A DNA stretch of 32,000 bases from Methanobacteriota archaeon. Its GTDB lineage: Archaea > Thermoplasmatota > Poseidoniia > Poseidoniales > Poseidoniaceae. The position numbers and the translations under genes are program-made. Shown here piece after piece: positions 491 through 20,334 of the stretch; within the stretch, counting starts at the first letter, position 1, and each line of letters begins with the position of its first letter. The notes below the pieces were generated by a model. It made no database searches and was not told the origin of the DNA. It worked only from the letters and a program-made list of their open reading frames with translations. The DNA lies in the NCBI GenBank assembly GCA_002707335.2, contig PAMN02000027.1, forward strand, positions 1 through 32,000, given 5' to 3'.

Positions 491-501
491 TTTATGTATA
501 T
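491..501 (+). promoter_or_regulatory. TATA-like box (TTTATGTATAT) for the 536.. operon
   Basis: AT-rich element about 40 nt upstream of the ATG at 536, bracketed by the two operator-like sites. Confidence 0.35.
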
Positions 502-1819: not shown

Positions 1820-1849
1820 GATTGTCCTCCTCACATAGCTCAAAATCTA

Positions 1850-1889
1850 GGGGTGGCTGGTTAAACGCCAACCACTAACCAGCCACCCC
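1850..1889 (+). other. GC-rich perfect hairpin: 14-bp stem GGGGTGGCTGGTTA / TAACCAGCCACCCC with a 12-nt loop
   Basis: Read directly from the sequence. It lies in the 86-nt spacer between the lipoprotein gene and the 777-aa gene. The GC content is conspicuous in an AT-rich genome. Confidence 0.6.
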
Positions 1890-1905
1890 ACTCGGAGCGA
1901 TTACC

Positions 1906-4239
1906 ATGAGATTGATTTGCCCACTTATTTGTGCGCTTTTCATGTTCACGATTATCCCTTTAGAGATAGCAATGGCAGATTCTAATGATGAAGGCAATTT
2001 GTTTAGTTTATACGGCAATTTGTACGATGAGGAAGGTAACCCTGCTGCAGAAACCTCAATGAAACTTGTTCCGAGAGGATCGATATGGGCAGATGGGGGT
2101 ACTTACTCAATAGAAAATATATCTGAAGGTGAATACACTGTAAGAGCCTATTTCATGAACAATGGGCATACGGTAGTATACCGAACAATATACATTGATT
2201 CAGATACAGAACTTGACTGGCAAGTAGGTAAAAACTGGGCCACTGGAAAGTTATACGACAATGCCGAACAATTAATCGAAAACCCAGATTTGACCAATGT
2301 CAAGTTAATAGAGACAAATGAATCTGAGACTACAGATAACGGGAGATTCTCCTTGGGCCCATATGAAATTGGTAATTACTACACATTAAGAGCTTATTAT
2401 GGAGATATTGATCATTCTACACAGTTTGTCCACTTCAAAATGCAGTCAGGTTCTGCGACTGAATTTGACATCAATGATTTTGAATTCTATCATGGTAAAA
2501 ATAGTCGATATGGTTTCGTAAAAGATTCAGCAGGTAATTCAATGCCAGGAGTGACCGTAAGCAACGGAGATCAAACTGTTACTACTAACTCAGATGGATT
2601 TTACCTGCTACAAAACCTAGAGATAGGTATTGAAAACAATTTTACATTTATGCATGGAGAAAACGAGGTTGCTCCGCCAATAACGGAAATAATCACATCT
2701 GGAGAAGGATGGATGAACAACACCGGCACGATTGAAATTAATCTACCAGGTAATGCATCATTTACTACACAGGTCCAGGTTATTGAAAAGAATAAACCAT
2801 TTTTGATAGAATGGAATGGCGGTGCCTATACAGAATCATATTCACTTTACAGGAATGGTATAATTACATACTCAGGTACGAAGAGTGAGTACTCATTCAC
2901 ACCTCAACAAACTGGAAATTTTGAATTTACATTAGTAGCTGAAAATAATAATGGCACAACTGAGACTTTCAAGACCCTAGTTCTGATGGTGCTCCCTGAA
3001 CAATCAAGTTCAGATTTGTGGGCAGTAGGTATGTATTGGAATTATACTGTTGATTACTTTCCTTCCAGTGATAATCAAAATATTACGATGACTGCGATTG
3101 GTAAAGAAACTGTTACGGACGCATTTGGCTTCGAAAGAGATTCATTTGTGATTAGAATGTCAGGATCACATTATGAGGATGAAGAAAAATCCTACAGATG
3201 GGTAGATACTCAAAATCTACTGTATCTGCGCACATATTGGGTCGATGACCCAGACTCATCGTCATATTTCCAAGAAGGCACTCTAGGATGGGATTTCACT
3301 GATGCTAATGGAAACAAAACTGATTTATTTTCATTAGAAAATGGGTCAAATCTCCATTTTAATAGAACCAATATCATAGGTGTTCCTGGTCATCCCAATG
3401 GATACGATGACACACAAAATTCCATCCAAGTAACTGACAATGTGGTTATCACTACTGCTGCAGGAACATTTTCTACAACATATATTTGTATTATCGATAA
3501 TAATGACGGAGTAAAATCATGGGAATTATGGTATAATGACACTGTAAGAAACTGGGTAAAGAAAATCGATCGGCTCCCAGGTTCTCATTCGGATTCCGTT
3601 GAAATGGAACTGACTTCATTTGTCGTTCCAGTTACACCTCAATTTATTACTGAAGATTCTAATATATCTACAAAGAATCATCTTATCGAATGGGCTTCCT
3701 TCCAGGGTGCCTCTTCATATGAACTTCTTCACAATGGAGAAGTCGTATATTCGGGTTCTAACACGTCTTTCGAAATCAGAAATAGCGAAGACGGAAGGTT
3801 TGTCTATCAAATCAATGCAATAATATCTCAAAATTACAAAATTACAGGAGACATTTTGACTCTAGATGTATTTTACATTCTACTTCCGCCTGTCTTGGAA
3901 ACGAATGTAGATACAATTACTGAAGGAGAGAAATTGAAGTTATCATGGAATCCTGTGGAGGATTCAATTTGGTATTCAGTAATTGTACAAAATGACGATA
4001 ATTCACCTGTGGAAGTGTACAACGGCTCTAAAACAGAATTTACTACATCTGACCTAGATGTTGGATTAAATAGAATTAGGATTAGTGCTGGATCTTCTGA
4101 TGGAAAAGTTTCTGAATTATCCGATTCGATATTCATCAAGGTAGAACCTGAAGAGGATTCTGGTTTACCATCAATTGGTATTTTGGCATCTATATTCTGC
4201 GTTTTAGCAGCGGCTTTTGTTCTAAAAAGAAATGATTGA
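1906..4239 (+). CDS. Anchored surface protein with carboxypeptidase-regulatory-like and FN3-like repeats and a C-terminal sorting signal
   Basis: 777-aa ORF with an N-terminal signal peptide. Three CarboxypepD_reg-like units (e.g. YGFVKDSAGNSMPGVTVSNGDQTVTTNSDGFYLLQNLEIG). Three FN3-like units (IEWNGGAYTESYSLYRNG..YSG, IEWASFQGASSYELLHNGEVVYSG, LSWNPVEDSIWYSVIV). C-terminus: EPEEDSGLPSIGILASIFCVLAAAFVLKRND. Confidence 0.8.
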   Translation: MRLICPLICALFMFTIIPLEIAMADSNDEGNLFSLYGNLYDEEGNPAAETSMKLVPRGSIWADGGTYSIENISEGEYTVRAYFMNNGHTVVYRTIYIDSDTELDWQVGKNWATGKLYDNAEQLIENPDLTNVKLIETNESETTDNGRFSLGPYEIGNYYTLRAYYGDIDHSTQFVHFKMQSGSATEFDINDFEFYHGKNSRYGFVKDSAGNSMPGVTVSNGDQTVTTNSDGFYLLQNLEIGIENNFTFMHGENEVAPPITEIITSGEGWMNNTGTIEINLPGNASFTTQVQVIEKNKPFLIEWNGGAYTESYSLYRNGIITYSGTKSEYSFTPQQTGNFEFTLVAENNNGTTETFKTLVLMVLPEQSSSDLWAVGMYWNYTVDYFPSSDNQNITMTAIGKETVTDAFGFERDSFVIRMSGSHYEDEEKSYRWVDTQNLLYLRTYWVDDPDSSSYFQEGTLGWDFTDANGNKTDLFSLENGSNLHFNRTNIIGVPGHPNGYDDTQNSIQVTDNVVITTAAGTFSTTYICIIDNNDGVKSWELWYNDTVRNWVKKIDRLPGSHSDSVEMELTSFVVPVTPQFITEDSNISTKNHLIEWASFQGASSYELLHNGEVVYSGSNTSFEIRNSEDGRFVYQINAIISQNYKITGDILTLDVFYILLPPVLETNVDTITEGEKLKLSWNPVEDSIWYSVIVQNDDNSPVEVYNGSKTEFTTSDLDVGLNRIRISAGSSDGKVSELSDSIFIKVEPEEDSGLPSIGILASIFCVLAAAFVLKRND

Positions 4240-4261
4240 GAGCGGTTTTTGAGAAGGTGAA

Positions 4262-5350
4262 GTGATGCGATACAAGGTTGTCATTTCGATTTTTCAAGCG
4301 ATTATAGTAATTGTGTGTGCAATTGGAATCTACAATTATGCATTAAAACAAAACACTGACGAAACAGGAGAAATAATTATCACAGATTCAAATGGAGTCA
4401 AACACTACTTTGATGAGCCGCCCAGTAGGGTTGCAATAACCAACACTTATGCAGGGACGGTAATGCGCATGCTAGACATAAACGAATCACACATTGTTGG
4501 TGTTTCTGGTGACTTTAGTGATGAAAAATTGTGGCCAGAGCTTTCAAAAAAACCTATGATTCAGCAATCGGCTCACTCAGAAATAGATTTTGAAGCTATA
4601 CTCGATTCAAGAGCCGACATATACATTGTATTTGCAAACAATGGGATGGTAGATACAGGGGGCATTAGAGAAAAATTAGAGCCTGTTGGTGTGAAAGTTG
4701 TTGCTCTTGATTTTTACAAATATGATTCATTGAGATATGAAATAGACGTTTTAGCAACAATGTTTGGAAAGGAAAACCAAAGAGACATTCTATTCAATGA
4801 GTTTGATGAAATTGAGTCGTTAGTAGAATCAAAGTTGGTATCTTTGGAAGATTCAAATCGACCACAAATAGTGATGGAACATCATGCTTCTCTGACTAGA
4901 GATCCTGTGGTTCTAACTGGAACATCTCAGTGGACAGATTTGATACAAAGGGCAGGAGGGATAAATGTGTTCGAGGATTTACCTGGACATACCACTCATG
5001 TTGACATGGAAGCAATTTTGGACAAAAATCCTGACATCTTGATGTTTGACGGAATTACATTTGACATAGGATACAACAGATATGATGATACTGGTACGAC
5101 TTGTGAGACTCACATGCAGCATATTGAGAGTAGATCAGGTTTCGAAGAATTAAACGCAATAAAGAATGATAAGATGTTAGTTCTTTCTGGTGAATTCGCA
5201 GGACCAATGATGATTCACGGACTACCAACATTAGCGAAATATCTTCATCCTGATTTATTCGAAGATGTCGATTCAGAATCATATTTGGATGCCTATTTCA
5301 CAAAATATCACGATGTAGAACGAATTGGCAAATTTGTTTGTACTACATAG
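4262..5350 (+). CDS. ABC transporter substrate-binding protein, Peripla_BP_2 class (Fe-siderophore/haem/cobalamin type), N-terminally membrane anchored
   Basis: 362-aa ORF. GGTGA Shine-Dalgarno-like element just upstream, GTG at 4262 and ATG at 4265. N-terminal TM. RVAITNTYAGTVMRMLD...VGVSG...IDFEAILDSRADIYIV follows the FhuD/BtuF/FecB family pattern. It sits directly upstream of FecCD permease and ATPase genes. Confidence 0.8.
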   Translation: MMRYKVVISIFQAIIVIVCAIGIYNYALKQNTDETGEIIITDSNGVKHYFDEPPSRVAITNTYAGTVMRMLDINESHIVGVSGDFSDEKLWPELSKKPMIQQSAHSEIDFEAILDSRADIYIVFANNGMVDTGGIREKLEPVGVKVVALDFYKYDSLRYEIDVLATMFGKENQRDILFNEFDEIESLVESKLVSLEDSNRPQIVMEHHASLTRDPVVLTGTSQWTDLIQRAGGINVFEDLPGHTTHVDMEAILDKNPDILMFDGITFDIGYNRYDDTGTTCETHMQHIESRSGFEELNAIKNDKMLVLSGEFAGPMMIHGLPTLAKYLHPDLFEDVDSESYLDAYFTKYHDVERIGKFVCTT

Positions 5351-6517
5351 GTGGTTGATCAAATGGATTCAATCTCCCTGCAACACGTTGAGAAAGGAAA
5401 ATATCAACTTTTAATAATTTTAGGACTTGCAGTTTTTACTTTGTTATCGGCTGTTTTCGCATTGGGTCTGGGTTCATCATCTAATCTTGACATGGTTACT
5501 AGTTGGAAAATTGTAATTTCTGATACAAAGAAATTTTTTCTCAATATTGATACCGTAGCTGATAATTTGTGGTACAATTTGACCGCTTGTATATCATCAT
5601 CTTCTTGTGAAGACCGGTCTCTTTTGCATGGAATAGAACGTGAAGGCACGAATATCCAAAATGCGATAATTTGGGACTGGAGGTTTCCAAGGATTCTGAC
5701 TGCAATAGTAGGAGGCATTGCCCTGGCTGTAGCTGGAGCATTGATGCAAGGATGTTTGGGCAACCCATTAGTTTCACCGTTAACACTGGGAGTTGCTTCA
5801 GGTGCAGCTCTTGGCGCTGCGTTTGCAATCGTTCTTGGTTTCACAATATTGTCTATTCCTGAACTCGCAATTGTTGCTAATGCATTCTTTTTCTCTCTGG
5901 TTGTTGTTACTATTATCATTCAGTTAGGTAAAATCCGTTCAATTAGCGCTGAATCATATATTCTTGTTGGTATTGCGATTACATTCATTTGCGGAGCTAT
6001 TGTGTCAACAATGCAATATTTTGCTACAGATGCTCAGTTATCCCAACTCGCACATTGGTCATTTGGAAGCCTATCTAGGCCTAGCGGTGGAAATGTAATA
6101 TTGATGGGTCTAATTCTGGCATCATTACTTCCAACCGCACTTAAATGGTCTTGGGACCTTAACACACTCTCAATGGGAGGTGATGAATTTGCTATATCCA
6201 CAGGAGTAAATCCAAGTAAAATCCGTAAAAATATTCTCATTGTTTCGGCTCTTATGACATCTATTGTGATTGCTTTCACAGGTTTGATTGGTTTCGTTGG
6301 ATTAGCAGCACCCCACATGAGTAGACTTATTGTGGGTAATGATTTTAGAAAATTAATTCCATGTTCGGGATTATTCGGTGCTTTTTTGATGATTTTTGCG
6401 GATACATTGGGTAGAACTCTTTTTGCTCCAATTGTAATTCCTGTGGGTGTTATGCTTTCGATAATAGGGGGTCCTTTTTTCATGTATTTATTGCTCAGGC
6501 GAGGTGGTCATCATTAA
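5351..6517 (+). CDS. FecCD/BtuC-family iron-chelate ABC permease
   Basis: 388-aa ORF. PRILTAIVGGIALAVAGALMQGCLGNPLVSPLTLGVASGAALGAA is the classic FecCD signature, and the protein is multi-TM. The true start may be the ATG at 5363, which has GGTGG 8 nt upstream. Confidence 0.9.
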   Translation: MVDQMDSISLQHVEKGKYQLLIILGLAVFTLLSAVFALGLGSSSNLDMVTSWKIVISDTKKFFLNIDTVADNLWYNLTACISSSSCEDRSLLHGIEREGTNIQNAIIWDWRFPRILTAIVGGIALAVAGALMQGCLGNPLVSPLTLGVASGAALGAAFAIVLGFTILSIPELAIVANAFFFSLVVVTIIIQLGKIRSISAESYILVGIAITFICGAIVSTMQYFATDAQLSQLAHWSFGSLSRPSGGNVILMGLILASLLPTALKWSWDLNTLSMGGDEFAISTGVNPSKIRKNILIVSALMTSIVIAFTGLIGFVGLAAPHMSRLIVGNDFRKLIPCSGLFGAFLMIFADTLGRTLFAPIVIPVGVMLSIIGGPFFMYLLLRRGGHH

Positions 6518-7325
6518 CAAAATCTTGGATGTGACAAACCTCAACTTTTCATGGGGGAGTAATGAAGTTTTGAAAGACATTAGTTTCTCTATGAAATCCA
6601 ATGAGGTTGTTGCGATATTGGGTATTAATGGTGCTGGAAAATCTACCCTAATCAAATGCCTAAATAGAATACTATCGCCAAAATCTGGAGATATACATAT
6701 TCGCCCTCATTGGAGTAATTTAAAAGAAACTAATCTAATCAATATCTCATCACTCGATCTTGTCGAGATATCAAAAACGATGTCATATGTACCACAAAAT
6801 GTTGCAACAAGTTTCCCCATGGATGTATTCGACGTAGTACTTCTTGGTCGCAAGCCACACCTAAGTTGGAGAATCAGTGATGAAGATAGAGACAAAGTTA
6901 GCGAAACTTTGAGGTATCTAAATCTAGAAGACTTTGCTTTTCGAAAGTTTAATCAGATATCAGGAGGAGAAAGACAAAGAGTAATTATTGCTAAGGCAAT
7001 TGCCCAAGATCCTAATTTGTTTTTATTTGATGAGCCAACAAGTGATTTAGATCTTAAAAATCAAATACAGATTATGAAATGTATAAGAAAAATAATCAAA
7101 GATAAAAACAATTCAAAATCTGCCTTAATTGCCATACATGACATAAATATAGCAGCAAAGTATTCAGATAAGATTCTCCTATTGAATAATGGTTCTATTA
7201 TGGCATATGGCCCGCCGTCTCAGGTCCTTACCGAGGAAAATATTGCAGAGGTATTTGGTGTAAAATGTTCCATTTCCTCAGTAGATAAGCATTATATTCG
7301 CGTTGATGTAGACGATGAAATCTAA
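6504..7325 (+). CDS. ABC transporter ATP-binding protein (FepC/BtuD-like)
   Basis: Walker A GINGAGKST, signature ISGGERQRV, Walker B LFLFDEPTSDLD. Overlaps the permease gene by 14 nt. Confidence 0.9.
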   Translation: MVIINKILDVTNLNFSWGSNEVLKDISFSMKSNEVVAILGINGAGKSTLIKCLNRILSPKSGDIHIRPHWSNLKETNLINISSLDLVEISKTMSYVPQNVATSFPMDVFDVVLLGRKPHLSWRISDEDRDKVSETLRYLNLEDFAFRKFNQISGGERQRVIIAKAIAQDPNLFLFDEPTSDLDLKNQIQIMKCIRKIIKDKNNSKSALIAIHDINIAAKYSDKILLLNNGSIMAYGPPSQVLTEENIAEVFGVKCSISSVDKHYIRVDVDDEI

Positions 7326-7345
7326 AAATAAATTAAAGTGATAAT

Positions 7346-8167
7346 ATGACAAAGAAAACGAGTGACTTATCAAGACATGGCGTACCTAAAGGAAAGAGAA
7401 GAGTACAACAAGAACTTCTTTACGACCCTGATATTCCAACGCCAACTCATGCAGAATATTCTATGACAATAGCTCACAAAAAGAATACTGCAACATTATG
7501 TACAATTTCGATAAACGAGGGAAACCATCCATATGGTTCGTTTGTTACATATGCAATGTATGAAGGAAATCCTATTTTCTTGATTAGCAAGTTAGCGGAA
7601 CATACTAAGAATCTCCGAGCAAATTCTAAATCATCATTATTGATTGCTGAAGGAGGCGATGAAAACCCACTTGCTTTAGGCCGCATAACCCTGGTAGGAA
7701 ACTGTACAAAACTTTCCAAAGAGGATAACCCAGAAGTAAAATCAATATTCTTGGAAGAGCATCCAAGCGCACGTTTTTATGTTGATTTCGAAGATTTTGA
7801 CTTTTATTGCTTAAATGTTGAAACTATTAGATACATAGGCGGTTTCGGTAGAATGTCTTGGGTAGACTCTGACAATTGGTTTAAATCTGAACCTGATCCA
7901 TTGGAGCCATATTCAAAAGATATTATCGAACATATGAACGATGATCATCGTGATGCAATGGTAATTCTCTGTCAGAAGATGAGTAAAGCCACCGATACGA
8001 CAGATGCAGTGATGGTGGCAATAGATCGTTATGGATTTGAAATGTCTGCGGTAACTGAAGATGGAGAACGTCCGATTCGTTTGGCATTTGATAACCAAGC
8101 CAGCAATTCAGAAGAGGCAAGAGTTGAGATAATAACCTTGGTCAAAAGAGCAAGAGCCTCCGAATGA
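7346..8167 (+). CDS. HugZ/COG0748-like haem-iron utilisation protein (PNPOx-like split barrel + DUF2470)
   Basis: 273-aa ORF. Split-barrel pattern: ATLCTISINEGNHPYGSFVTYAMYEGNPIFLISKLAEHTKNLRANSKSSLLI...RITLVG. C-terminal DUF2470-like segment: IIEHMNDDHRDAMVILCQ. It lies immediately after the FecBCD-type transporter. Confidence 0.7.
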   Translation: MTKKTSDLSRHGVPKGKRRVQQELLYDPDIPTPTHAEYSMTIAHKKNTATLCTISINEGNHPYGSFVTYAMYEGNPIFLISKLAEHTKNLRANSKSSLLIAEGGDENPLALGRITLVGNCTKLSKEDNPEVKSIFLEEHPSARFYVDFEDFDFYCLNVETIRYIGGFGRMSWVDSDNWFKSEPDPLEPYSKDIIEHMNDDHRDAMVILCQKMSKATDTTDAVMVAIDRYGFEMSAVTEDGERPIRLAFDNQASNSEEARVEIITLVKRARASE

Positions 8168-8199
8168 TGCAATTGTAAGGTTTTGAATACACGGAACGA

Positions 8200-8922
8200 G
8201 TGGGATTGTTGGGGGGACTTAATTTGTCAAGCAGCGAATTGATTCTCTCAGTTGAAAATCTAACAGTCGGTTACAATGAAGAGTTGATTTCGAAGATCAA
8301 CTTAGAAATAAATACGGGAGATGTAATTGCTGTTGTCGGACCTTCTGGTATAGGAAAAACAACGCTACTGAGGACTATTGCGGGATTGGTGAAACCAATT
8401 TCAGGAGACATTTTTTGTAAGGCTCCTAAAAGGGGAGGAATCGGTTACATCCCTCAAAAGTTAGGCCTAGTACGCCATACTAGTGTCTATCATAATGTGG
8501 ATTTGGGTGCTAGATCAGGCTCAAGATTTTTTTCTGAGCCAAAAACCTGGTTCAAAAGAAGAAGTGAAAGAGTAACGACAGCAGTCGAAAGAATGGGACT
8601 TTCAGATAAAATGAATGAGCCAGTAAGGCGTTTATCTGGTGGCCAGCAAAGAAGAGTTGCGACAGCGAGAACACTGGCTCAAAGACCAAAATTAATTCTT
8701 GCTGATGAGTTTTTAAGCGAACTGGATGAAGATAATATTTCAATTGTTCTAGATGCTGTAAAAGAATATATGGCTGCTAGCGAATCTGCAATGATTATTG
8801 TTGAACATAACATTCAGAGAGCAACCGAAATTTCTACTCGTCTACTTCAGATTAAAAATGGCGAATTAGTAGAGTACAATCCTTCAGAAATGAAATTTGA
8901 TCTAGATGGTGGTTTAATATGA
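8200..8922 (+). CDS. phnC: PhnC-like ABC transporter ATP-binding protein
   Basis: Walker A GPSGIGKTT, signature LSGGQQRRVATARTL. Atypical Walker B, ILADEFLSELD, with F where P is usual. The PhnC-like insertion between the Q-loop and the signature is present. The GTG start is uncertain. Confidence 0.75.
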   Translation: MGLLGGLNLSSSELILSVENLTVGYNEELISKINLEINTGDVIAVVGPSGIGKTTLLRTIAGLVKPISGDIFCKAPKRGGIGYIPQKLGLVRHTSVYHNVDLGARSGSRFFSEPKTWFKRRSERVTTAVERMGLSDKMNEPVRRLSGGQQRRVATARTLAQRPKLILADEFLSELDEDNISIVLDAVKEYMAASESAMIIVEHNIQRATEISTRLLQIKNGELVEYNPSEMKFDLDGGLI

Positions 8923-8931
8923 GGTGTTACA

Positions 8932-9837
8932 ATGAATAGAGCACTCAAAAAAATCATCTTCACAACGGTTACTCTTTCTGTGCTGTGCTATATCTTTCTT
9001 AATGATTTATTGCAAGGCGATTGGAGTGTTCTCTCTGCAAGTTGGGATAACCTAGAAACATTTTGGAATGAGTCTCTTTGGCCTCCAGAATGGAGTATGT
9101 TAGAAGCCAGGAAATACCCAGAGTGTGGATCAAGCATTGGGTTTTTCTGTTCCAAAGCCTACATTGGAATGCTTGAAACACTAAAAATGGCATTTGTTGC
9201 AACAATAATTGGGTTTACCATAGCAATATTTCTGTCTCCGTTTGCAGCAAAAAACCTCACATCTGCTTGGGTTTACATCCCAATGAGAATAATTCTAGCA
9301 GCAACTAGAAGTCTTCCAAGCATTATATGGGCTATAATCTTCGTAGTAATTGTAGGCCTAGGTCCTTTAGCTGGAGTACTAGCAATGACATTTTACACAG
9401 TAGGGTATCTAGGTAAATTGCAGTATGAAGAAATGGAAGGTGTTCAAAATAGCCCTCTCGAGGCTGCGAGGGCAATGGGGTTATCTCATCCAGAAATCGT
9501 AGCTAACGTTGTCATACCAGAATCAAGCAATAATTTACTTAGTCAACTGCTATTTATGTTTGAATACAATGTTAGACACGGTTCAATCCTTGGTTTAGTT
9601 GGAGCGGGAGGCATAGGATTTTATTTGCAATTCTACTTGAACTTCTTGATGTATAAACACGTTATGGCTTTCATCGTTGTTATTCTGGTGGTTGTAATAA
9701 TCATAGATTTGATGTCGATGTACATACGCTCATTCGTTACAGAAGATGGTGATGTAAAACGACCATCTTGGTCAACAATATTCTTATCTCCAAATCAAGC
9801 AAAGAAATACCATCATGGTAAATCGGAAGAAGAATGA
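8932..9837 (+). CDS. phnE: PhnE-like ABC transporter permease
   Basis: 301-aa multi-TM ORF. EAARAMGLSHPEIVANVVIPES...RHGSILGLVGAGGIGFYL matches the PhnE signature, including GAGGIG. GAGGTG Shine-Dalgarno-like element upstream. Confidence 0.8.
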   Translation: MNRALKKIIFTTVTLSVLCYIFLNDLLQGDWSVLSASWDNLETFWNESLWPPEWSMLEARKYPECGSSIGFFCSKAYIGMLETLKMAFVATIIGFTIAIFLSPFAAKNLTSAWVYIPMRIILAATRSLPSIIWAIIFVVIVGLGPLAGVLAMTFYTVGYLGKLQYEEMEGVQNSPLEAARAMGLSHPEIVANVVIPESSNNLLSQLLFMFEYNVRHGSILGLVGAGGIGFYLQFYLNFLMYKHVMAFIVVILVVVIIIDLMSMYIRSFVTEDGDVKRPSWSTIFLSPNQAKKYHHGKSEEE

Positions 9838-11048
9838 ATTTGGTTCAATTGATAAATTGTTCCAGCCCAACTGAATATCAGTAATTCATCATTTGTTCCT
9901 TTACCAAATCCTACTATCATGGTTCCAACATTGCCTACCTCTGATGTCGACCAATTGCCATCGATGTTTTTGATTGTCCACAATTGTCCACTGCAGAAAT
10001 CGCCATACAAGTAGCCATCTCGTAAAGGATTTGGCCCCCAATCCATCCAGAAACCCCCGATGATTGAGCAATGCCCTTCATGGTTATACTGTGCAACAGG
10101 ATCGGTAAATTTTGGATCAGGAGTAGACCTATTATCGTAACAACCTCCATTTCTATCAAGGTCATGGAATCCTTCCCTTTCAGACCAGCCAAAATTTGAA
10201 CTTTGCATTACCGGGATTACATTAACTTCCTCATAACATAACTGACCAACATCTGCTATCCAAAGATTACCTGTGGGATCTACATCGATTCTCCAAGGAT
10301 TTCTAAGACCATAGTGTAGTGTTTGGCTCAGATTTTGTGATTCTTCAACGGGCACTATACTTTCATTTTCATAATGAATCAATTGTATAGTACCAAGAGG
10401 CGAGGATGAATTTTGTCCGTGCTCGTGTGGGTCGAAGCTTCCCCCTCCATCTCCAAGACTCCATAAATACTGATTATTGCCTATGGACAATATATTTCCT
10501 CCATTGTGATTTCTATTCGATTTATTTACAGTTATTAGTACCTCTAATGTGTCGAGTTGAATCTTTTCATCTATCACTTTTGCATGTGCTAAAACTACAT
10601 TAGAATCCTCTGCGCTCTTACACGTATTGTTTTCGTTGTATACCAACAAAACCCTTCCTGTGTTTGCATAGTCTTCATCAAAATCCATCCCAAGTAGACC
10701 CTGTTCGTGGTGACATCTTGAAACGATACCTGACAGGTCACCAACAACATCTGACTGTACAGGAAGTTGTTGGCCTTCAGGCAGTGACCACTTCGTAATG
10801 ACTCCGTCCAAGTTTGCTATCCAAATTGAATCACTCAATGGGTCTTCTAATGTAATGATAGGAGTTGCATTCATGCTAGCGTAATATTCACAAACTAGAC
10901 CGGTTTCATTGGAAATATTACAATCGATTTCAACTTGCTCAGGCCAAATAAATCTTTTCTTTTCTTCCTCTTTTTCGTCTCCGAAGCATCCGGAAAGGAC
11001 GCTAGATAGCAAGAAAATAGCAATAAGATATGTACGAACTTTTTTCAT
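9813..11048 (-). CDS. PQQ-dependent sugar dehydrogenase-like (GSDH family) beta-propeller lipoprotein
   Basis: Contains NHNGGNILSIGNNQYLWSLGDGGGS, GLRNPWRIDVDPTGNLWIADVGQLCYEEVNVI and NFGWSEREG, which are the GSDH (PF07995-type) motifs. Signal and lipobox: LLSSVLSGC. I place the start at MKKVRTYL (11048), 1 nt after the upstream stop, rather than at the ORF-track start 11099. Confidence 0.8.
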   Translation of the reverse strand: MKKVRTYLIAIFLLSSVLSGCFGDEKEEEKKRFIWPEQVEIDCNISNETGLVCEYYASMNATPIITLEDPLSDSIWIANLDGVITKWSLPEGQQLPVQSDVVGDLSGIVSRCHHEQGLLGMDFDEDYANTGRVLLVYNENNTCKSAEDSNVVLAHAKVIDEKIQLDTLEVLITVNKSNRNHNGGNILSIGNNQYLWSLGDGGGSFDPHEHGQNSSSPLGTIQLIHYENESIVPVEESQNLSQTLHYGLRNPWRIDVDPTGNLWIADVGQLCYEEVNVIPVMQSSNFGWSEREGFHDLDRNGGCYDNRSTPDPKFTDPVAQYNHEGHCSIIGGFWMDWGPNPLRDGYLYGDFCSGQLWTIKNIDGNWSTSEVGNVGTMIVGFGKGTNDELLIFSWAGTIYQLNQIHSSSDLP

Positions 11049-11049
11049 T

Positions 11050-12129
11050 TCAATCGTATTTATCATTAAAGTAAGCGGTGATTCCAGGTACGTCCTCAAT
11101 CAGACTACCGTAGTTACCGAGGTGATCTTGCGTGTTAATGATAGTAATTCCAGGAGTACTCATTACATCCTGTAAAATTTCTACGTCATCTGAGTTAGAA
11201 CTCATATCAGAGAATGCATTCTGTATTGTTACAACCATTTCATCTGACATATAATCCGGATTGTACATAATTGGATGGCTTGGAGCCTTTCCAAATGTTG
11301 GCAGTGCGTAATAGTCGTTTACGTCCTTAAATTCACCTTCAAAGCACCAATCTTCATTGTCATCAGGGTCTTCATTGCCACAGTAATCTGGAACTGTAGG
11401 GTCCTTAGCGAAGGAAATGAAGTCTTTTCCACCCTCTGCTAAACAGCGAAGGGAACCTATGTACTTGTGATATTTTGTACCGCTATCTGGTATACTAGAA
11501 TCTTCATTGAAATGATTATACACAGTATCTGTCAAGGAACTGATATCATCTGGATCTCCGACAACTTCGATATAACCTCTGTCAATCATCCATCCCATCG
11601 GAAGTAGCATTCCTGAACTTCCTAATGCAGATGTGTGGCACGATGTTTTACCTTCCATCAAAGCGAATGGATCTGTTGAATTATCATCATCTTGGTCGGC
11701 CAATGCCATGTCTGAATCTTTGTGAACCCATGCGATCGCATTGTAGAATGGTCTTCCATCTTGCTTTTGTTCAGCACCTAAAACCTGTAAGTCGTGTGTT
11801 TGCCAACTGAGCCAAGCAGCACCGCCGTCAAGGAACCCAATATCGGCATGTCCAAATCTCAATGCTTCAATAGTTGCACCAGGACTTGATACGGGGTAAA
11901 TTTCAACGTCCATTCCGATAATTTCTGAAAGCCTATCTGCTAGCTCCTGTGGATTTTCTTCGGTATTCTGGTATTCTTCTTTTGTCTCGAATGCGATTGT
12001 TAAACAGTTGTCTGGGTCATCACATTTCTTGAATGTAACCATACTATCGTCTGTAAATAAACAGCCGGGCATTGCAGCAGATATAAAGAAAATCGTCACT
12101 AAAAACGGGAGGGTCAATTTGGCATTCAT
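11050..12129 (-). CDS. Lipoprotein substrate-binding protein of the PhnD/transferrin superfamily with a transferrin-like Fe-ligand set
   Basis: 359-aa ORF with signal and lipobox (FFISAAMPGC). Motifs ADIGFLDGG, PFYNAIAWVHKDS, GKTSCHTSALGSSGMLLPMG, KYIGSLRCLAEGGKDFISFAK and APSHPIM align by eye to the human serotransferrin N-lobe around Asp63, Tyr95, Thr120, Tyr188 and His249. A pipeline would probably label it a phosphate/phosphite/phosphonate ABC substrate-binding protein. Confidence 0.8.
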   Translation of the reverse strand: MNAKLTLPFLVTIFFISAAMPGCLFTDDSMVTFKKCDDPDNCLTIAFETKEEYQNTEENPQELADRLSEIIGMDVEIYPVSSPGATIEALRFGHADIGFLDGGAAWLSWQTHDLQVLGAEQKQDGRPFYNAIAWVHKDSDMALADQDDDNSTDPFALMEGKTSCHTSALGSSGMLLPMGWMIDRGYIEVVGDPDDISSLTDTVYNHFNEDSSIPDSGTKYHKYIGSLRCLAEGGKDFISFAKDPTVPDYCGNEDPDDNEDWCFEGEFKDVNDYYALPTFGKAPSHPIMYNPDYMSDEMVVTIQNAFSDMSSNSDDVEILQDVMSTPGITIINTQDHLGNYGSLIEDVPGITAYFNDKYD

Positions 12130-12139
12130 GGTATCACAA

Positions 12140-12153
12140 TTAGGCTGCCCTAA
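12140..12153 (-). promoter_or_regulatory. Candidate operator site (reads TTAGGGCAGCCTAA on the minus strand), 10 nt upstream of the ATG at 12129
   Basis: Same 14-bp motif as at 475/509, oriented with the downstream (minus-strand) gene. Confidence 0.5.
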
Positions 12154-12162
12154 AATAATCTG

Positions 12163-12173
12163 CTTAATATATT
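12163..12173 (-). promoter_or_regulatory. TATA-like box (AATATATTAAG on the minus strand) for the 12129.. operon
   Basis: AT-rich element bracketed by two operator-like sites, about 35-45 nt upstream of the ATG. Confidence 0.35.
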
Positions 12174-12187
12174 TTAGGCCGCCCTAA
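12174..12187 (-). promoter_or_regulatory. Candidate operator site (reads TTAGGGCGGCCTAA on the minus strand) abutting the TATA-like box
   Basis: Starts exactly 34 bp from the 12140 site, the same spacing as the 475/509 pair. Confidence 0.5.
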
Positions 12188-12231
12188 ATCAAACTGTAAT
12201 TCACTATTGAGTAAAGTATAAGTGGCGTTGT

Positions 12232-12245
12232 TTAGGGCAACCTAA
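12232..12245 (+). promoter_or_regulatory. Candidate operator site (TTAGGGCAACCTAA) upstream of the 892-aa gene
   Basis: Fifth copy of the motif, in plus orientation. It lies between an AAAGTATAA TATA-like element (about 12213-12221) and the start region at 12257/12272. Confidence 0.4.
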
Positions 12246-12256
12246 AAGTACAATCT

Positions 12257-14935
12257 TTGGAGGACTTCATTTTGGATGCAAACAAGTTATCGGTATTCAT
12301 CAGGAAATACCCTTTAGTCATAATCTTGGTTTTGTTAATCCTACCTTCATCGATAACAGTGCCCCATGTATTAATGACTCCAGATAATCCAAGTGGAGAA
12401 ATACCATTTCCTGAAAACATAAGCGTTGATTCAGAAGGTTTTGTTTTAATCGTTTTAGATGGGATTGGTGAAGATTATTTTCTCAACGAAGAATTGATGC
12501 CAGAGATAAATAAATACAGGGAATATTCTGCTACAGTCAAGATTAGAACTGGTCCACTTACCCTTTCAGCCACATGTATTAGCGAAATGATGACAGGAGT
12601 GCCAAACGCCCCCATCAATGGATTACGAAATTTCAATCTAGGCCACCCTGGGATGAATGACCCTTATCTGTTAGCAGCAAATGATCCAAGATACAATGTT
12701 GCTATGGTTGGAAGTTACGTGATGGGGAATATGTATCGAGATTTTTCAAATATTGATTTTGTAAATACTTTCAAAGGACATTCTGACTATTATGAAGGGG
12801 ATAAGGATACATTAGAAGTAGCCGCAGATTGGCTGAATAATTCGGATTACAACGTGATGGCTGTACATTTCTCAGGGCCAGATAAAGTCGGACACACATG
12901 GGGTGCAAACAGCCCGGAGTACAGAACTAAAATAACTGCTGTTGACCTACAAGTTGCAGAACTACTGGATTTAATTCCATCTCAATGGTCTGTAATCATA
13001 ACTGCTGACCACGGAATGACAGATATGGGAACTCATGGTTCCTCAGAAGAGATAACACGAGATGTTGCAGCAATTATTTCCGGCCCAAATATTGTTTCTA
13101 AATCTGAAAGTTCTGGGCACCAGAGAGACCTTTCTGCTATTGTTCCAGTAATATTGGGGTTACCATTTCCAATTCAACTCCATGGCAGAATACCATTGGA
13201 TATTCTGGATTATTCTGATAGTGAGAAGTCTGTGATTGAAAGCTGGAATTGGGACGCAGCATATCAAAGACAACTGTTTTTTGATAAGGAAAATGGAGTT
13301 GACAACCCTGACCTATCACAGGATGAGATAGATTGGGAATTAATCCCATCAGATGGAGATTTTTCGCGTGATAGTGACATTTTAATTTCGATATTTACCT
13401 GGATAATGATCGGTGTTTTTTTGATACTAGCATTGGGATTAAATCGAAATGAAATAAAATCAAATTGGAAAATATTTGCATCCTTCATAGCCATAATTTC
13501 ATTATTCATCCTGAGTCATGCCATGTTGAAATACTCAGCCATGATTCCGAGAGCAATTGGCGGCCTATGTGCTGTATGGCTAGTAGGCTGGTCGATGTCA
13601 AAAACAAATAGAAATGATCTCGAAACTAAAGGGGAAATATCTGATAGAATAGGTCAAATTTTGCACAAACCCTTGATTTGGTTTGGTTTGTCTTGTGTTA
13701 TCGGAATTATATTTTGGTCTCCTCTAATAGCAGTTGTAAGCACACTATTTGCGTATTCGATACTGTATTCATTGTATTGCGCATTTAACAAAAATGAGAA
13801 GCAATCTGACTATCCCACTTTTTGGCCTTGGATCATGGCTCTGTTGTGCATGACCTTTGGTAGCATTAGATTGTGGTACAGTTTAATTCCTTTCATGTTT
13901 ATTTTATCTGGGATGTTAATTGGATTCATAAAAACCAAAAAAACCAGCATTGAAAAAATGCCCATCGTGTGTATGCTGATGTTGACTTCATATGCTGTAT
14001 TTTTCGTTCATAAGAGGATATATGGAGTCAATTACATACTGGAAGCTGTTGAATCGGGTTGGCCAAATTCTATCGAGAATATTTTAATATCTTCAGTATT
14101 GCTTATTCTTAGTGCTATAATTTCTGTCACTGCACATTTTGGAGAGATTAAATCCGAGAAAACCGTCAAATTCTCAATATGGTTATTATTCGGATTACTT
14201 GTTTCATCTATTGAATCCTCATATTTAGATCTCGTATCAATAGCGCTTATTTTCTTCGCATTCGGCGCTGCTGTTTTCATACGAATTAAAGAACCTGAAT
14301 CAAAATTAGTCATTGAATACACGGTTGCAGCATTAGCGATGCAATTACTACTCACTTGGGGGGCATGGTCTACATTTGCAACACTGTTAATTTTAACATG
14401 CTCCGGAAAAATATGGGGCTTAATTAGTGATGAATTTAGACAATCAACTCATAATTACAATGCTAAACCATTTATCGCTGCTGCAGTTTTCCCTTGGGTC
14501 ATATGGGTTTTATGGTGGACTCTTTTAGGACAAGTAAACGGGTTACAAACATGCTTTGAAGGTATTTGTCCCCATCCAAGGGAATTAGATCCTGGTTCGA
14601 TTCTAGTAAGAGGAGGCTATGTTGGATTCAGAGAGGGGCCAAACCTATATTGGATGATATTTATGATTTCAAGTCCAATAATATTGACCTCGTTCATGTT
14701 AATGAAAAATTTACATAAAAACGGATTGGATATGTATCCTTACATATTATTCCAGGCTTTGGTAGTACTAGGTTGTATCAGTGTAATCGGATTTTCTCCA
14801 GAATATCCAAGGCTTGTATTTAGTCTAACTTGGAATATATTTTTCGCAATATTCCAAATTGTCTTAGCAACATCGGTGATTATTATGAATCGTTATTTTC
14901 CTGCAGGTTTAGAAAAACAGAACTATGTTTCGTAA
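12257..14935 (+). CDS. Membrane-embedded alkaline-phosphatase-superfamily enzyme, PigN/PigO-like (phosphoethanolamine-transferase / type I phosphodiesterase architecture)
   Basis: 892-aa ORF with an N-terminal TM. The catalytic domain has VLIVLDGIGEDYF, a GPLTLSATCISEMMTGV nucleophile region, HFSGPDKVGHTWG and ITADHGMTDMGTHG. About 500 aa of multi-pass TM follow. TTG start at 12257; an alternative TTG at 12272 sits behind GGAGG. Confidence 0.7.
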   Translation: MEDFILDANKLSVFIRKYPLVIILVLLILPSSITVPHVLMTPDNPSGEIPFPENISVDSEGFVLIVLDGIGEDYFLNEELMPEINKYREYSATVKIRTGPLTLSATCISEMMTGVPNAPINGLRNFNLGHPGMNDPYLLAANDPRYNVAMVGSYVMGNMYRDFSNIDFVNTFKGHSDYYEGDKDTLEVAADWLNNSDYNVMAVHFSGPDKVGHTWGANSPEYRTKITAVDLQVAELLDLIPSQWSVIITADHGMTDMGTHGSSEEITRDVAAIISGPNIVSKSESSGHQRDLSAIVPVILGLPFPIQLHGRIPLDILDYSDSEKSVIESWNWDAAYQRQLFFDKENGVDNPDLSQDEIDWELIPSDGDFSRDSDILISIFTWIMIGVFLILALGLNRNEIKSNWKIFASFIAIISLFILSHAMLKYSAMIPRAIGGLCAVWLVGWSMSKTNRNDLETKGEISDRIGQILHKPLIWFGLSCVIGIIFWSPLIAVVSTLFAYSILYSLYCAFNKNEKQSDYPTFWPWIMALLCMTFGSIRLWYSLIPFMFILSGMLIGFIKTKKTSIEKMPIVCMLMLTSYAVFFVHKRIYGVNYILEAVESGWPNSIENILISSVLLILSAIISVTAHFGEIKSEKTVKFSIWLLFGLLVSSIESSYLDLVSIALIFFAFGAAVFIRIKEPESKLVIEYTVAALAMQLLLTWGAWSTFATLLILTCSGKIWGLISDEFRQSTHNYNAKPFIAAAVFPWVIWVLWWTLLGQVNGLQTCFEGICPHPRELDPGSILVRGGYVGFREGPNLYWMIFMISSPIILTSFMLMKNLHKNGLDMYPYILFQALVVLGCISVIGFSPEYPRLVFSLTWNIFFAIFQIVLATSVIIMNRYFPAGLEKQNYVS

Positions 14936-17547: not shown

Positions 17548-19452
17548 ATGAAAGGAAGAATGGTTGTATTATTTTTGGTGGCATTATTCGTTTTTTTGCC
17601 TTTGAATGGCGCAGTTACAGCTGAAGATTCAGGACGTCAAGTAGACGATGTTGATTGTTCAGGATATTCATTTGAAGATTTATTTGAATATGACAATGCA
17701 GTATTCATGTTTGAGATTTTAGACGATTGGGCTACATCTGATCTCTATGCAAACTCATGGGTTAATGAAAGCCGTGCTGCAACTGTAAGAGATAATCTTG
17801 ACAGTCTTTTCGATGGATTCCCAGGTGGTAACAATGACTGGATTTCAACTGACGAGAGAGAGGCTGTTAGAGAAATCGGTGCAAAATGTATTGCAGACAT
17901 GTACACTAGAATTGGTATTCGTGAAGGTACCCCTCATAGAGGAAGTATCAATTGGAACAATGCAACATTCGTGGAGGAAGGAATTGGTCTAGAAGAAGTT
18001 AACTTAGTCCCTGATGGTCATCCTGAAGAGAGATCTTGCTCGCAAAGATATGCATTCGCTAGTGCAGACTGTAGAGAGGTTCCAACAACGGCAACTAATA
18101 ACTTAGAAATCTCGATGTACGTAAAAGATGGTGAGACACACAATACAAGATTCAATCAATTGCCCAACTCTGGCCAGAGCGATTTTACTGTCTCTATGAA
18201 TGTAACAAACATGCCGATGGCGTCAATGGTCTTCACTTTCCCATTCGTTGATGGTTTGAGGCTGGCAAATTTCTCGATACAAGATGATGGAATCGAGAAC
18301 CCATCGGGGGCTACAATCGAAGAGATTTTCCTGCCCGATGGTTCAGTTAGAATCAGTGTAGGTATTTCCTATGAGATAGGTGTTGAAACTGCTATCAGGA
18401 ACATATTCATCGATATGACAACCCAACCTCCAGAATCTAATGATGTTCCTGTGTGGACTAATGAGGCTCCTGCAGATAACACCCTTATCCCAATTCTAAA
18501 TGATGGTAGCGAAACAGTTGCAATAAAGGGCGATATTATGGCAAACTGGGCATCCGATGACGATGCTTGGGGATTAGATTGTGTCTTCACAGAAGAGGGA
18601 TGGTCTAGCAGAATGGTTGGAAGTGATTTACAAGTCACACCAGGAAACAGTCAATCTGGAACTGCAGAATGTTCACCTGTTGACCCATACGGTGCATCAA
18701 GCAACACATCTCACACTTACAAATTTGGACAACCAGCAGATATTAGCGCTACAGCAGGAACCTACAGCGATTCGGTTGATATCAGTATCACGCCAAATAT
18801 GCTGACTCAAAACTTAGCAATGACGCTGGCTCCTAATCAAGGTGCATCCGATGGAGATTCAACTTCATTCAATATTGGTTCTACCCCAAGCACTCAGACA
18901 GTAAGCCTATCTGGAATAGGTCCGGGCTTATTCCACATACATGCGACAGCAGAAGCAGAAGGCATGCTAGATTGGGATGTAATCGTTAACCTAAATTTGG
19001 AAAAGAGAAACACCCCTCCAATTCTGATGGTTTATACTGTTGATGACGATATGTATGCAACATGGTCTGCAGATGGATACTCATTCACTCTGTCTGGCAA
19101 TGCATTCGATCCGGATGGAACTGTTGTAGAATTATCTGCTACAATGTGTGACGAAACCACTACAAGTTTCACATCAGAAGGTAGTGAGTGGGTAGTCAGC
19201 CTTTCAATCGCTAAGTGTGTCTCAATGGGGCTCACAGAAAGTTATGATGTTATTATCTCAGCAAAGGACGATGTTGGTGAATTTACAACAATGGACATTT
19301 TTGTTCCAAACCCAGATGCGGAAGATGAAGCCGAAGGAGAAACAGATACTACTGAGGCAGAGGAAGAAGCCGCAGGACTACCATCAGTCGGATTATTTGC
19401 ATCATTAATCAGCATACTTGCAGCTGCTATTATTCTGAGAAAAGATAACTGA
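17548..19452 (+). CDS. Secreted, anchored protein of unknown function with a C-terminal sorting signal
   Basis: 634-aa ORF with signal peptide MVVLFLVALFVFLPLNGAVTA. An Ig/cadherin-like segment lies near the C-terminus (SGNAFDPDGTVVEL). Acidic/Thr linker EAEGETDTTEAEEEAA, then GLPSVGLFASLISILAAAIILRKDN. Confidence 0.75.
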   Translation: MKGRMVVLFLVALFVFLPLNGAVTAEDSGRQVDDVDCSGYSFEDLFEYDNAVFMFEILDDWATSDLYANSWVNESRAATVRDNLDSLFDGFPGGNNDWISTDEREAVREIGAKCIADMYTRIGIREGTPHRGSINWNNATFVEEGIGLEEVNLVPDGHPEERSCSQRYAFASADCREVPTTATNNLEISMYVKDGETHNTRFNQLPNSGQSDFTVSMNVTNMPMASMVFTFPFVDGLRLANFSIQDDGIENPSGATIEEIFLPDGSVRISVGISYEIGVETAIRNIFIDMTTQPPESNDVPVWTNEAPADNTLIPILNDGSETVAIKGDIMANWASDDDAWGLDCVFTEEGWSSRMVGSDLQVTPGNSQSGTAECSPVDPYGASSNTSHTYKFGQPADISATAGTYSDSVDISITPNMLTQNLAMTLAPNQGASDGDSTSFNIGSTPSTQTVSLSGIGPGLFHIHATAEAEGMLDWDVIVNLNLEKRNTPPILMVYTVDDDMYATWSADGYSFTLSGNAFDPDGTVVELSATMCDETTTSFTSEGSEWVVSLSIAKCVSMGLTESYDVIISAKDDVGEFTTMDIFVPNPDAEDEAEGETDTTEAEEEAAGLPSVGLFASLISILAAAIILRKDN

Positions 19453-19454
19453 GT

Positions 19455-20333
19455 GTGTTTTTGATGTTCTCGGGCACTGTTGACAGGGTTAGCCATGAAG
19501 GTGGCTTGTTGGTTTCTTATACCGGCTCATGCCCTGCATTAGGTTCTGTAATGGTTGATTCAAATGATGAATATATCGGAAAGGTAGACGGTGTAATTGG
19601 TAACACAGATAGTTCCTTAGTCCACATTGCACACTTGGACAGGAAATCAAGAGCTGAAAAATTAGTTGGTATTACCGTTCTAATTAGAACCAAAAAACCC
19701 AACCAAAACAGAACATTCGATAGAAGAAACGATCGGGGAAACGATAGAAGAAGCGATCGTAGAAACGATAGAAGGCAATCCAATCAAATCTCAAATAGCA
19801 GAGATTGGGAATGTAAAAGTTGTGGAAATTCTAACTTTTCATTTAGAACGGAATGCAATCGATGCGGCGAACCAAAGAACAGTAGATCTGGGTCAGATAA
19901 TAGGCGCAGAGATGACAGACGAGGCGGTAACAGGCGAGGAGATAACCAACAAAGAAGGGATAATTATCGCAATGACAACCGACGTGGTGACAACAGGCGT
20001 GGCGACAATCGACAGAGAAGAGATAACTTCCGTGGAGACAGACGTAACGACAATCGACGTGATGATAATAGGCAAAGAAGAGATGACTATCGTGGTGACA
20101 ATAGGCGCGGCGATAGGAGTAGGGACAACAGGGAAAGAAATTCTCCGCCAAAGCGTGCTGGAGACTGGGATTGCCCAAGTTGTGGAAAATCCAATTTTGC
20201 AAATCGAACAGAATGTTTCAGTTGTGGAAAATCAAAAAGAGTAGGTGGTCCCAGACAAAGAGGCCATCACAGAAAACAAAAGAGTCCACCAGGTTTGCAT
20301 TCTGCAAGATACGGAAGGGGTTCGAGGGATTGA
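19455..20333 (+). CDS. Gar1-like (H/ACA RNP) beta-barrel core fused to two RanBP2-type zinc fingers and Arg/Asp/Asn-rich repeats
   Basis: The N-terminus, GTVDRVSHEGGLLVSYTGSCPALGSVMVDSNDEYIGKVDGVIGN, follows the archaeal Gar1 pattern (G-x-V..G-h-L-V....P-x-L-x-x-x-V-x-D....h-G-x-V-x-x-V-h-G). Two perfect W-x-C-x2-C-x3-N-x6-C-x2-C fingers: WECKSCGNSNFSFRTECNRC and WDCPSCGKSNFANRTECFSC. Probable start is the ATG at 19464 (MFSGTV). Confidence 0.65.
   Translation: MFLMFSGTVDRVSHEGGLLVSYTGSCPALGSVMVDSNDEYIGKVDGVIGNTDSSLVHIAHLDRKSRAEKLVGITVLIRTKKPNQNRTFDRRNDRGNDRRSDRRNDRRQSNQISNSRDWECKSCGNSNFSFRTECNRCGEPKNSRSGSDNRRRDDRRGGNRRGDNQQRRDNYRNDNRRGDNRRGDNRQRRDNFRGDRRNDNRRDDNRQRRDDYRGDNRRGDRSRDNRERNSPPKRAGDWDCPSCGKSNFANRTECFSCGKSKRVGGPRQRGHHRKQKSPPGLHSARYGRGSRD
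19890..20138 (+). repeat. In-frame degenerate tandem repeats encoding (D/N)NRRGDN(R/Q)QRRD(N/D)(Y/F)R-type units
   Basis: Three units of about 20 aa each: DDRRGGNRRGDNQQRRDNYRN, DNRRGDNRRGDNRQRRDNFRG and DRRNDNRRDDNRQRRDDYRG. They are visible in both the translation and the DNA. A shorter RND-rich stretch lies at 19710-19778. Confidence 0.8.
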
Positions 20334-20334
20334 A

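Follow-up and report, generated by a model that had tools for sequence, protein, structure and literature searches.

The window analysed here is a stretch of 32,000 nucleotides from an archaeon of the Poseidoniales (Marine Group II, MGII; contig PAMN02000027.1, positions 1 to 32,000), and it contains five copies of a 14-base element placed before three transcription units, which begin with a FEA1-like lipoprotein, a transferrin-like binding protein and an 892-aa membrane-anchored enzyme. These five sites are most likely operators of a metal-sensing repressor of the DtxR/IdeR family, similar to the haloarchaeal TroR. This reading is based on the non-random occurrence of the sites, their conservation before iron-uptake genes, their match to the published IdeR/DtxR and TroR motifs, and their linkage to DtxR-family genes in sister lineages. 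The five repeated sites are real, conserved and non-random, and the feature they form is clearly functional. We infer which regulator acts in this clade, that its signal is iron and that its effect is repression.

All five sites have the form TT[A/C]GGG-NNN-CCTAA when read in the direction of their own gene (Table 1). Four are exact TTAGG-N4-CCTAA sequences and one carries a single A-to-C change, with four-base spacers of GACA, GCGA, GCAG, GCGG and GCAA. The pattern TTAGGGNNNCCTAA, searched with at most one mismatch, gives nine strand-matches at five places and no others in the 32 kb, while 100 shuffles of the sequence average 0.22 matches and never exceed 2. With two mismatches allowed in the palindromic core, the only additional matches are scattered ones within genes, and this relaxed scan reveals no further convincing site in the window; the other promoters within the window lack the motif. 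An earlier note on this DNA had reported the five sites, a 34-bp spacing for both pairs, and a proximal site 10 nt before the ATG of the minus-strand gene. All five were located where it had placed them, the start-to-start spacing of the 475/509 and 12140/12174 pairs is exactly 34 bp in each case, and the proximal minus-strand site ends 10 nt ahead of the ATG at 12129.

To assess conservation, a single genome of each species was scanned for binding-protein relatives, which gave 80 loci from MGIIa, MGIIb and Marine Group III (MGIII) with 47-92% protein identity and a total of 1.2 Mb. The exact sequence TTAGGNNNNCCTAA occurs 112 times in these loci against 1.3 expected, with 90 occurrences within 220 bp upstream of the binding-protein gene. 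A site with at most one mismatch is present in 66 of the 78 unique regions upstream of binding-protein orthologues, as a single copy in 33, two copies in 26 and three in 7. Relatives with binding proteins 78-89% identical (loci L008-L011 and L015) carry a site at the same position as 12139-12154, with a spacing of 33 or 34 bp, and FEA1-like promoters with site pairs are also found in relatives. Orthologues of the 892-aa enzyme in L008-L011 and L014 are 64-70% identical and keep the site, with another gene between them and the binding-protein gene, in the order AAAGTATAA(A/G), 8-10 nt, site, ribosome-binding site and start codon. Elsewhere the gene lies inside the binding-protein operon (L018, L024, L025, L033, L039) or has its own TATA-abutting site (L027, L034); its retention of the site or its operon membership across genomes makes it a stable regulon member. 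In all, the 887/892-aa enzyme was recorded in L008-L011, L014, L018, L024, L025, L027, L032-L034 and L039. The earlier proposal of one regulon framing the iron-uptake block is thus supported, with the site or pair conserved before binding-protein, FEA1-like and 892-aa orthologues across the Poseidoniales; the outcome that would have spoken against it, relatives keeping the genes and losing the sites, was looked for in the relatives and did not occur.

Alignment of 106 orthologous sites in a position-weight matrix defines a 16-bp palindrome, T-TTAGG-N4-CCTAA-A. Among first sites, 64 of 66 have the preceding T and 66 of 66 the following A; for later sites the counts are 38 of 40 and 29 of 40. 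Outside T(0) and A(15) the flanks are unconserved. The earlier description of the motif as directional rather than a pure palindrome does not hold, as the core shared among relatives is perfectly palindromic over 16 bp. In gene direction, position 6 is G in five of five window sites and in 56 of the 106 orthologous sites (53%), compared with 28 (26%) for the equivalent base at the mirror position, so that directionality is a real but mild skew over a perfect palindrome and not a directional element. The fixed spacing of exactly 34 bp applies to the window and does not extend to relatives, where only one site is found in 33 of the 78 promoters and gaps between successive sites are 33 bp (11 cases), 34 bp (8), 35-36 bp (3), 43-46 bp (10) and 15 bp (5), with three outliers of 58-89 bp.

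Variant half-sites also occur, and the TTCGG form seen at window position 509 recurs at orthologous positions in relatives. In IdeR, the T-to-G change equivalent to a TTCGG/CCGAA half-site abolishes binding. A Poseidonia-like clade (L029, L037, L038, L040-L043, L045, L046) has asymmetric TTAGGG-NNN-ACGAA-A sites before the binding-protein gene, with a canonical archaeal BRE-like CGAAA in place of the right half-site (BRE, the element recognised by TFB, which immediately precedes the TATA box). Asymmetric sites or TTCGG/CCGAA half-site variants are additionally present in L031, L033, L039 and L054.

Comparison with characterised systems places the motif in the DtxR family. In the IdeR-DNA structure each subunit reads one CCTAA pentamer, and a dimer recognises repeats 1 and 3 within the 19-bp box, corresponding to TTAGG-N4-CCTAA; IdeR also binds a half box as a single dimer, as at the nuo promoter, and the authors propose redefining the IdeR/DtxR family consensus as the 14-bp TTAGGNNNNCCTAA (PMC8464063). 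The window sites are this same CCTAA inverted repeat of 14 bp with a 4-bp spacer, in agreement with the 106-site matrix, and they stand upstream of FEA1-like, transferrin-like binding-protein, ABC-transporter and haem-oxygenase clusters, where relatives keep them. The logic would also be the same, an iron-dependent repressor positioned over the promoter. The classical 19-bp two-dimer DtxR/IdeR box (TTAGGTTAGSCTAACCTAA), with four CCTAA repeats, does not describe them: the spacers are not TTAG/CTAA and, because the flanks beyond the 16-mer are unconserved, the sites are isolated 14/16-mers and not two overlapping palindromes offset by 5 bp. Further differences are the archaeal promoter (TATA/BRE) in place of a sigma-70 promoter, and the recognition helix of the MGIII regulator described below, which is MntR-like (KPASVTEM) as opposed to the IdeR-type SGPTVSQT. 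The Fur box, a 19-bp A/T-rich palindrome of the GATAATGATAATCATTATC type, was likewise considered and rejected by inspection, as the G/C-containing TTAGGG...CCTAA sites bear no resemblance to it.

The closest archaeal counterpart is TroR, a DtxR-family protein of Haloferax volcanii with the ChIP-seq motif TTTAGGC-NNN-CCTAAAANAN, often in multiple copies (PMC10783522). In its siderophore operon the TATA box lies between two copies spaced by about 30 bp, and mutation of both abolishes regulation; the protein represses iron uptake in replete iron and also activates dpsA (PMC10783522), and it represses idr, which encodes another DtxR-family regulator (PMC10783522; Martinez-Pastor et al., NAR 2023). 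The motif found here, tTTAGGG-NNN-CCTAAa, is nearly identical, and the likeness extends to tandem copies about 30 bp apart around a TATA box (putative here), iron-uptake targets and A-rich sequence after the motif; repression of idr parallels the sites beside DtxR genes in MGIII. This architecture is present in the window as pairs at 34 bp with an A/T-rich box directly after the distal copy, and in relatives as pairs at 33-36 or 43-46 bp. The two systems differ in position 6, where Haloferax prefers C and G is preferred here, in the regulon, which comprises siderophore biosynthesis there and FEA1-like, transferrin-like binding protein, HugZ and NPP-type enzyme genes here, and in the host, a haloarchaeon as against an uncultured planktonic archaeon of the Poseidoniales. 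Leyn and Rodionov (J Bacteriol 2015), as summarised in PMC10783522, predicted DtxR-family regulons in 26 archaeal species of the Euryarchaeota, Crenarchaeota and Korarchaeota; in outline, they used comparative genomics to reconstruct regulons of the DtxR family for iron, manganese and other functions, with the palindromic motifs. No link between the Poseidoniales and a DtxR-type iron regulon was found in the literature searched. The mechanism itself is unsurprising, the motif, tandem layout and regulator family being already characterised in haloarchaea and actinobacteria.

Examining the position of the sites relative to promoter elements suggests how they might act. An A/T-rich TATA-like element with the consensus cTTTATATA starts 2 nt after the first (distal) site in the 66 site-bearing regions of relatives, which places the right half CCTAAA of that site at the BRE position. 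In the window, transcription start sites (TSSs) were predicted about 25 bp downstream of the A/T-rich box taken as the TATA box, and the predicted starts at ~520, ~12142 (minus strand) and ~12243 each fall within a proximal site, followed by short leaders with GTGAT- or GGAGGA-type ribosome-binding sites. The spacing from the A/T-rich box to the start codons is compatible with an archaeal core promoter (BRE/TATA), and comparison among the window promoters gave no clear general BRE/TATA consensus. The TATA, BRE and TSS assignments are given here as putative.

Iron-dependent repression by promoter blocking is the most likely mechanism, judged from this geometry and by analogy with TroR, IdeR and other archaeal repressors. 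In Archaeoglobus fulgidus MDR1 and other archaeal promoter-occluding systems, a metal-dependent DtxR-family repressor at or downstream of the TATA box blocks RNA polymerase recruitment. Each 16-bp palindrome would fit one repressor dimer. When iron is sufficient, an Fe2+-loaded dimer would occupy the TATA-abutting distal site, whose CCTAAA half coincides with the BRE position, and would block TFB and TBP; where a second site exists 33-34 bp downstream over the start, another dimer would cover the promoter-opening region and block the recruitment of RNA polymerase. When iron is scarce, the repressor would leave the DNA, allowing transcription of the FEA1-like/haem/siderophore-type operon, the binding-protein operon and the 892-aa ectoenzyme gene.

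The candidate regulator is encoded beside the sites in MGIII. The sites of seven MGIII loci adjoin the gene of a 219-aa protein that carries Fe_dep_repress, Fe_dep_repr_C and FeoA domains, and this gene is divergent from a binding-protein, FEA1-like or 777-aa-protein-like gene. The shared intergenic region holds three sites in most of these loci and one in L053 and L055, and where there are three, one lies between two back-to-back TATA-like boxes. On further contigs the 219-aa regulator is divergent from the binding-protein operon or from the FTR1 iron permease. Aligned to DtxR, it keeps the primary-site ligands Met10, Cys102, Glu105 and His106, and the ancillary-site ligands are not kept; its best solved relatives are the putative iron-dependent repressor 8pvt, MntR, DtxR and IdeR. 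The MGIII gene is followed by a DsrE-like gene with overlapping or abutting stop and start (L088-L097, 3001-4415; L077, 8865-9882; L035, 16448-17463) and, in L088-L097, by a thioredoxin gene, and one of three iron genes (binding protein, FTR1, FEA1-like) stands divergently upstream of it. Metagenome contigs scanned for two sites 32-45 bp apart yielded at least 120 loci from many biomes, with GC contents from 0.31 to 0.75. Among those listed, the spacing peaks at 33-36, 39 and 43-44 bp, a DtxR-family open reading frame (ORF) begins within 200 bp of the pair in 31 of 120, and in others the pair precedes FEA1-like and binding-protein genes. Judged from these contigs, the site pair is a widespread operator layout of archaeal DtxR-family proteins, and its frequent placement directly before the regulator's own gene suggests autoregulation.

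Several observations weigh against assigning the sites to a DtxR-type iron repressor in this clade. Neither the window nor the adjoining 8 kb was found to contain a DtxR-family gene, and none was found in the 10 kb on either side of the binding-protein gene of any MGIIa/MGIIb locus examined, a search that covered about 20-40 kb per genome; the genes to the right of the window encode aconitase, prolyl isomerase and POR proteins and no regulator, and phmmer searches of every ORF from the window and 100 loci, with DtxR and MntR as queries, returned only the MGIII-type genes. The ten closest full-length relatives checked for the MGIII regulator include no abundant marine cluster recognisable as an MGII orthologue. 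Within the best 120 homologues of that regulator (down to 67% identity), P0219 (69%), the one whose contigs were examined, lies on MGIII-like contigs, and the next full-length relatives in a search at the 50% cluster level were P0244 and P0247, the latter a rare singleton. NCBIfam places the MGIII regulator nearest to MntR models and below every curated cut-off, so its metal specificity rests on the ligand pattern, target genes and motif type. The proximal site is missing in many relatives (for example L013, L014 and L016-L025), and the two-site arrangement is therefore not essential. Viral contigs (IMG/VR) scanned for the site pair gave 60 loci, none of them Poseidoniales-like and none with a DtxR gene. 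Many phage contigs (L229, L234, L239, L246, L250, L255, L257, L266, L273 and others) carry two TTAGGC..GCCTAA palindromes exactly 34 bp apart around an apparent bacterial -35/-10 promoter. Such pairs may be an unrelated phage repressor-operator system with the same palindrome, and since they occur at 34 bp without a nearby DtxR gene, the motif alone is not diagnostic.

The failure to find a DtxR gene in the MGIIa/MGIIb loci examined, the lack of an MGII-like abundant cluster among the ten relatives checked and the phage pairs would all suit an explanation in which the operators of Marine Group II proper are bound by a non-DtxR or very distantly related regulator that has taken over, or converged on, TTAGG-N4-CCTAA. 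This explanation is improbable: as little as about 20 kb of each genome was inspected, regulator genes often lie apart from those they control, and the 16-bp motif is identical in MGII and in MGIII, where the DtxR gene is adjacent, which argues for the same DNA-binding specificity. There is little likelihood, too, of a DtxR-family regulator that senses manganese or zinc (MntR/TroR-type) or acts as an activator at some promoters, as the MntR-type NCBIfam matches, the non-conserved ancillary-site ligands and the activation of dpsA by Haloferax TroR (PMC10783522) might suggest. The targets are iron-specific (FEA1-like, transferrin-like, haem oxygenase, FecCD), the haloarchaeal manganese-linked paralogue SirR uses a different motif, TTTwGAnnnnTCwAAA (PMC10783522), the primary metal site is of the Met/Cys type found in DtxR and not of the MntR Asp/Glu type, and the predicted placement of sites over BRE and TSS positions fits repression. 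That the repeats are non-regulatory, being core-promoter sequence (BRE/initiator) of strong promoters or a small dispersed repeat, is highly improbable, for although the distal copy overlaps the BRE position and the Poseidonia-like clade has a BRE-like right half, other window promoters lack the motif, copies also lie downstream of the TATA box and as tandems 15 bp apart, the motif is restricted to iron genes and DtxR genes, and a perfect palindrome is typical of dimeric-regulator sites.

The Poseidoniales are among the most abundant archaea of the surface ocean and are still uncultured. A defined 16-bp operator provides a sequence-only route to listing the genes they switch on under iron limitation, among them genes for binding proteins of FEA1/phytotransferrin-like and transferrin-like type, for haem uptake and degradation, and for unexpected enzymes. 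The operator helps the interpretation of ocean metatranscriptomes, and its interest lies mainly in marine microbial ecology. A broader proposal, which is rather unlikely, would have the whole MGII iron-starvation response run through this one operator without a close orthologue of the MGIII or haloarchaeal regulator (a divergent or replaced sensor), the right half-site doubling as BRE, with repressor and TFB in competition for its bases, and the members without an evident role in iron uptake reflecting undescribed iron-acquisition chemistry. If it were true, the 892-aa NPP/alkaline-phosphatase-type ectoenzyme, the pyrroloquinoline quinone (PQQ)-dehydrogenase-like beta-propeller protein and the 777-aa surface protein would point to such chemistry.

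Table 1. Candidate operators, putative promoter elements and genes of the iron-uptake block (operators as 14-base sites, with the 16-bp palindrome in brackets; positions are those of the window).
Feature	Position	Strand	Sequence, evidence or remark
Site 1, distal operator of FEA1-like promoter	475-488 (474-489)	+	T-TTAGGGACACCTAA-A; right half CCTAAA at expected BRE position
Putative TATA box, FEA1-like promoter	491-498	+	TTTATGTA; between the two sites
Site 2, proximal operator of FEA1-like promoter	509-522 (508-523)	+	T-TTCGGGCGACCTAA-A; over predicted start ~520
Site 3, proximal operator of binding-protein promoter	12140-12153 (12139-12154)	-	TTAGGGCAGCCTAA; over predicted TSS ~12142; GTGAT (Shine-Dalgarno-like), then ATG
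Putative TATA box, binding-protein promoter	12165-12172	-	ATATATTA
Site 4, distal operator of binding-protein promoter	12174-12187 (12173-12188)	-	T-TTAGGGCGGCCTAA-A; abuts putative TATA box; best-conserved element
Putative TATA box, 892-aa gene promoter	12213-12221	+	AAAGTATAA; 10 nt upstream of its site
Site 5, single operator of 892-aa gene	12232-12245 (12231-12246)	+	T-TTAGGGCAACCTAA-A; over predicted TSS ~12243
Eight same-strand genes	536-9837	+	Pfam, NCBIfam; probable operon, from short gaps
FEA1-related lipoprotein (first gene)	536-1819	+	NCBIfam NF038033 (FEA1_rel_lipo), 285.6 bits, cut-off 250
777-aa surface protein (second gene)	within 536-9837	+	
Peripla_BP_2 binding protein (third gene)	within 536-9837	+	Pfam
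FecCD permease (fourth gene)	within 536-9837	+	Pfam
ABC ATPase (fifth gene)	within 536-9837	+	Pfam
HugZ-like haem oxygenase (sixth gene)	within 536-9837	+	CREG/PNPOx and DUF2470 domains
PhnC-like ATPase (seventh gene)	8200/8224-8922	+	
PhnE-like permease (eighth gene)	8932-9837	+	
PQQ-dehydrogenase-like beta-propeller protein	9813-11099	-	after binding protein
Transferrin/PhnD-like substrate-binding protein	11050-12129	-	Pfam, NCBIfam
892-aa membrane-anchored phosphodiesterase/alkaline-phosphatase-superfamily enzyme	12272-14935	+	Pfam, NCBIfam; divergent from minus-strand pair

The genes lying between the site clusters make up an iron-acquisition island of the Poseidoniales, with gene identities taken from Pfam and NCBIfam matches. 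The window belongs to a 42.7-kb metagenome contig from Tara Oceans (ERR594335 k127_724759). Homologues of the window proteins come from genomes labelled 'Euryarchaeota archaeon', Candidatus Poseidoniales and Marine Group II, both metagenome-assembled and single-cell. Continuity of the plus-strand operon is probable from its short gaps, except for the 86-bp gap (1820-1905) between the FEA1-like and 777-aa genes. This gap contains a perfect hairpin with a 14-bp stem at 1849-1888, GGGGTGGCTGGTT...AACCAGCCACCCC, with a free energy of -38.2 kcal/mol (z = -6.7 against shuffles), which may be an intra-operon attenuator or an RNA-stabilising element setting the ratio of the first gene to the rest. The start of the 892-aa ORF is more likely the TTG at 12272, after GGAGGA at 12260-12265, than the TTG at 12257, as start-codon comparison with relatives indicates. 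The gene pair of binding protein and PQQ-dehydrogenase-like protein (SBP-GSDH) is kept in all close relatives. The PQQ-dehydrogenase-like protein and the 887/892-aa enzyme are constant regulon members whose contribution to iron uptake is not evident.

In MGIII and many other relatives, one operon contains the binding-protein gene together with those of the PhnC/PhnE-like ATPase and permease, which supports their working together, as the earlier note had supposed in grouping them. Distant relatives carry a separate site before the ATPase gene; none was found for it in the window or the closest relatives, so that co-regulation here would need read-through from 475/509 or an uncharacterised internal promoter. 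A two-mismatch match before the ATPase gene at 8209-8222 (TTGGGGGGACTTAA) was rejected as an operator because the closest relatives show only a GGGGGAG/GGAGGGA ribosome-binding site at that position; the near-match is probably a ribosome-binding site. Just upstream of the ATPase gene, at the end of the HugZ-like gene, the sequence TTGTAAGGTTTTGAATACACG (8165-8195) is conserved at the nucleotide level in L009-L011 and L014, and it may be an internal promoter for the ATPase/permease pair.

Other gene clusters are associated with the sites in relatives. In MGIIb-type contigs of the Thalassarchaeaceae type (L135, L138, L157, L183, L195, L203, L205), a site pair spaced by 43-44 bp lies directly upstream of homologues of the 634-aa, RanBP zinc-ribbon and TPR proteins encoded at 17548-21366 in the window, often divergent from FEA1 or the binding protein; this cluster may be a regulon member in those contigs, and the window has no site there. 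Additionally, a small cysteine-rich protein (92-118 aa) is encoded directly after one exact site and an adjacent variant site in L026 (~1400-1513), L036 (~6700-6815), L040 (~7100-7193) and L045 (~3700-3792). It combines an N-terminal zinc ribbon (CxxCG...CPxCG) with a C-terminal CSGSC...KSKCC motif, and its part in the regulon could be metal binding or regulation.

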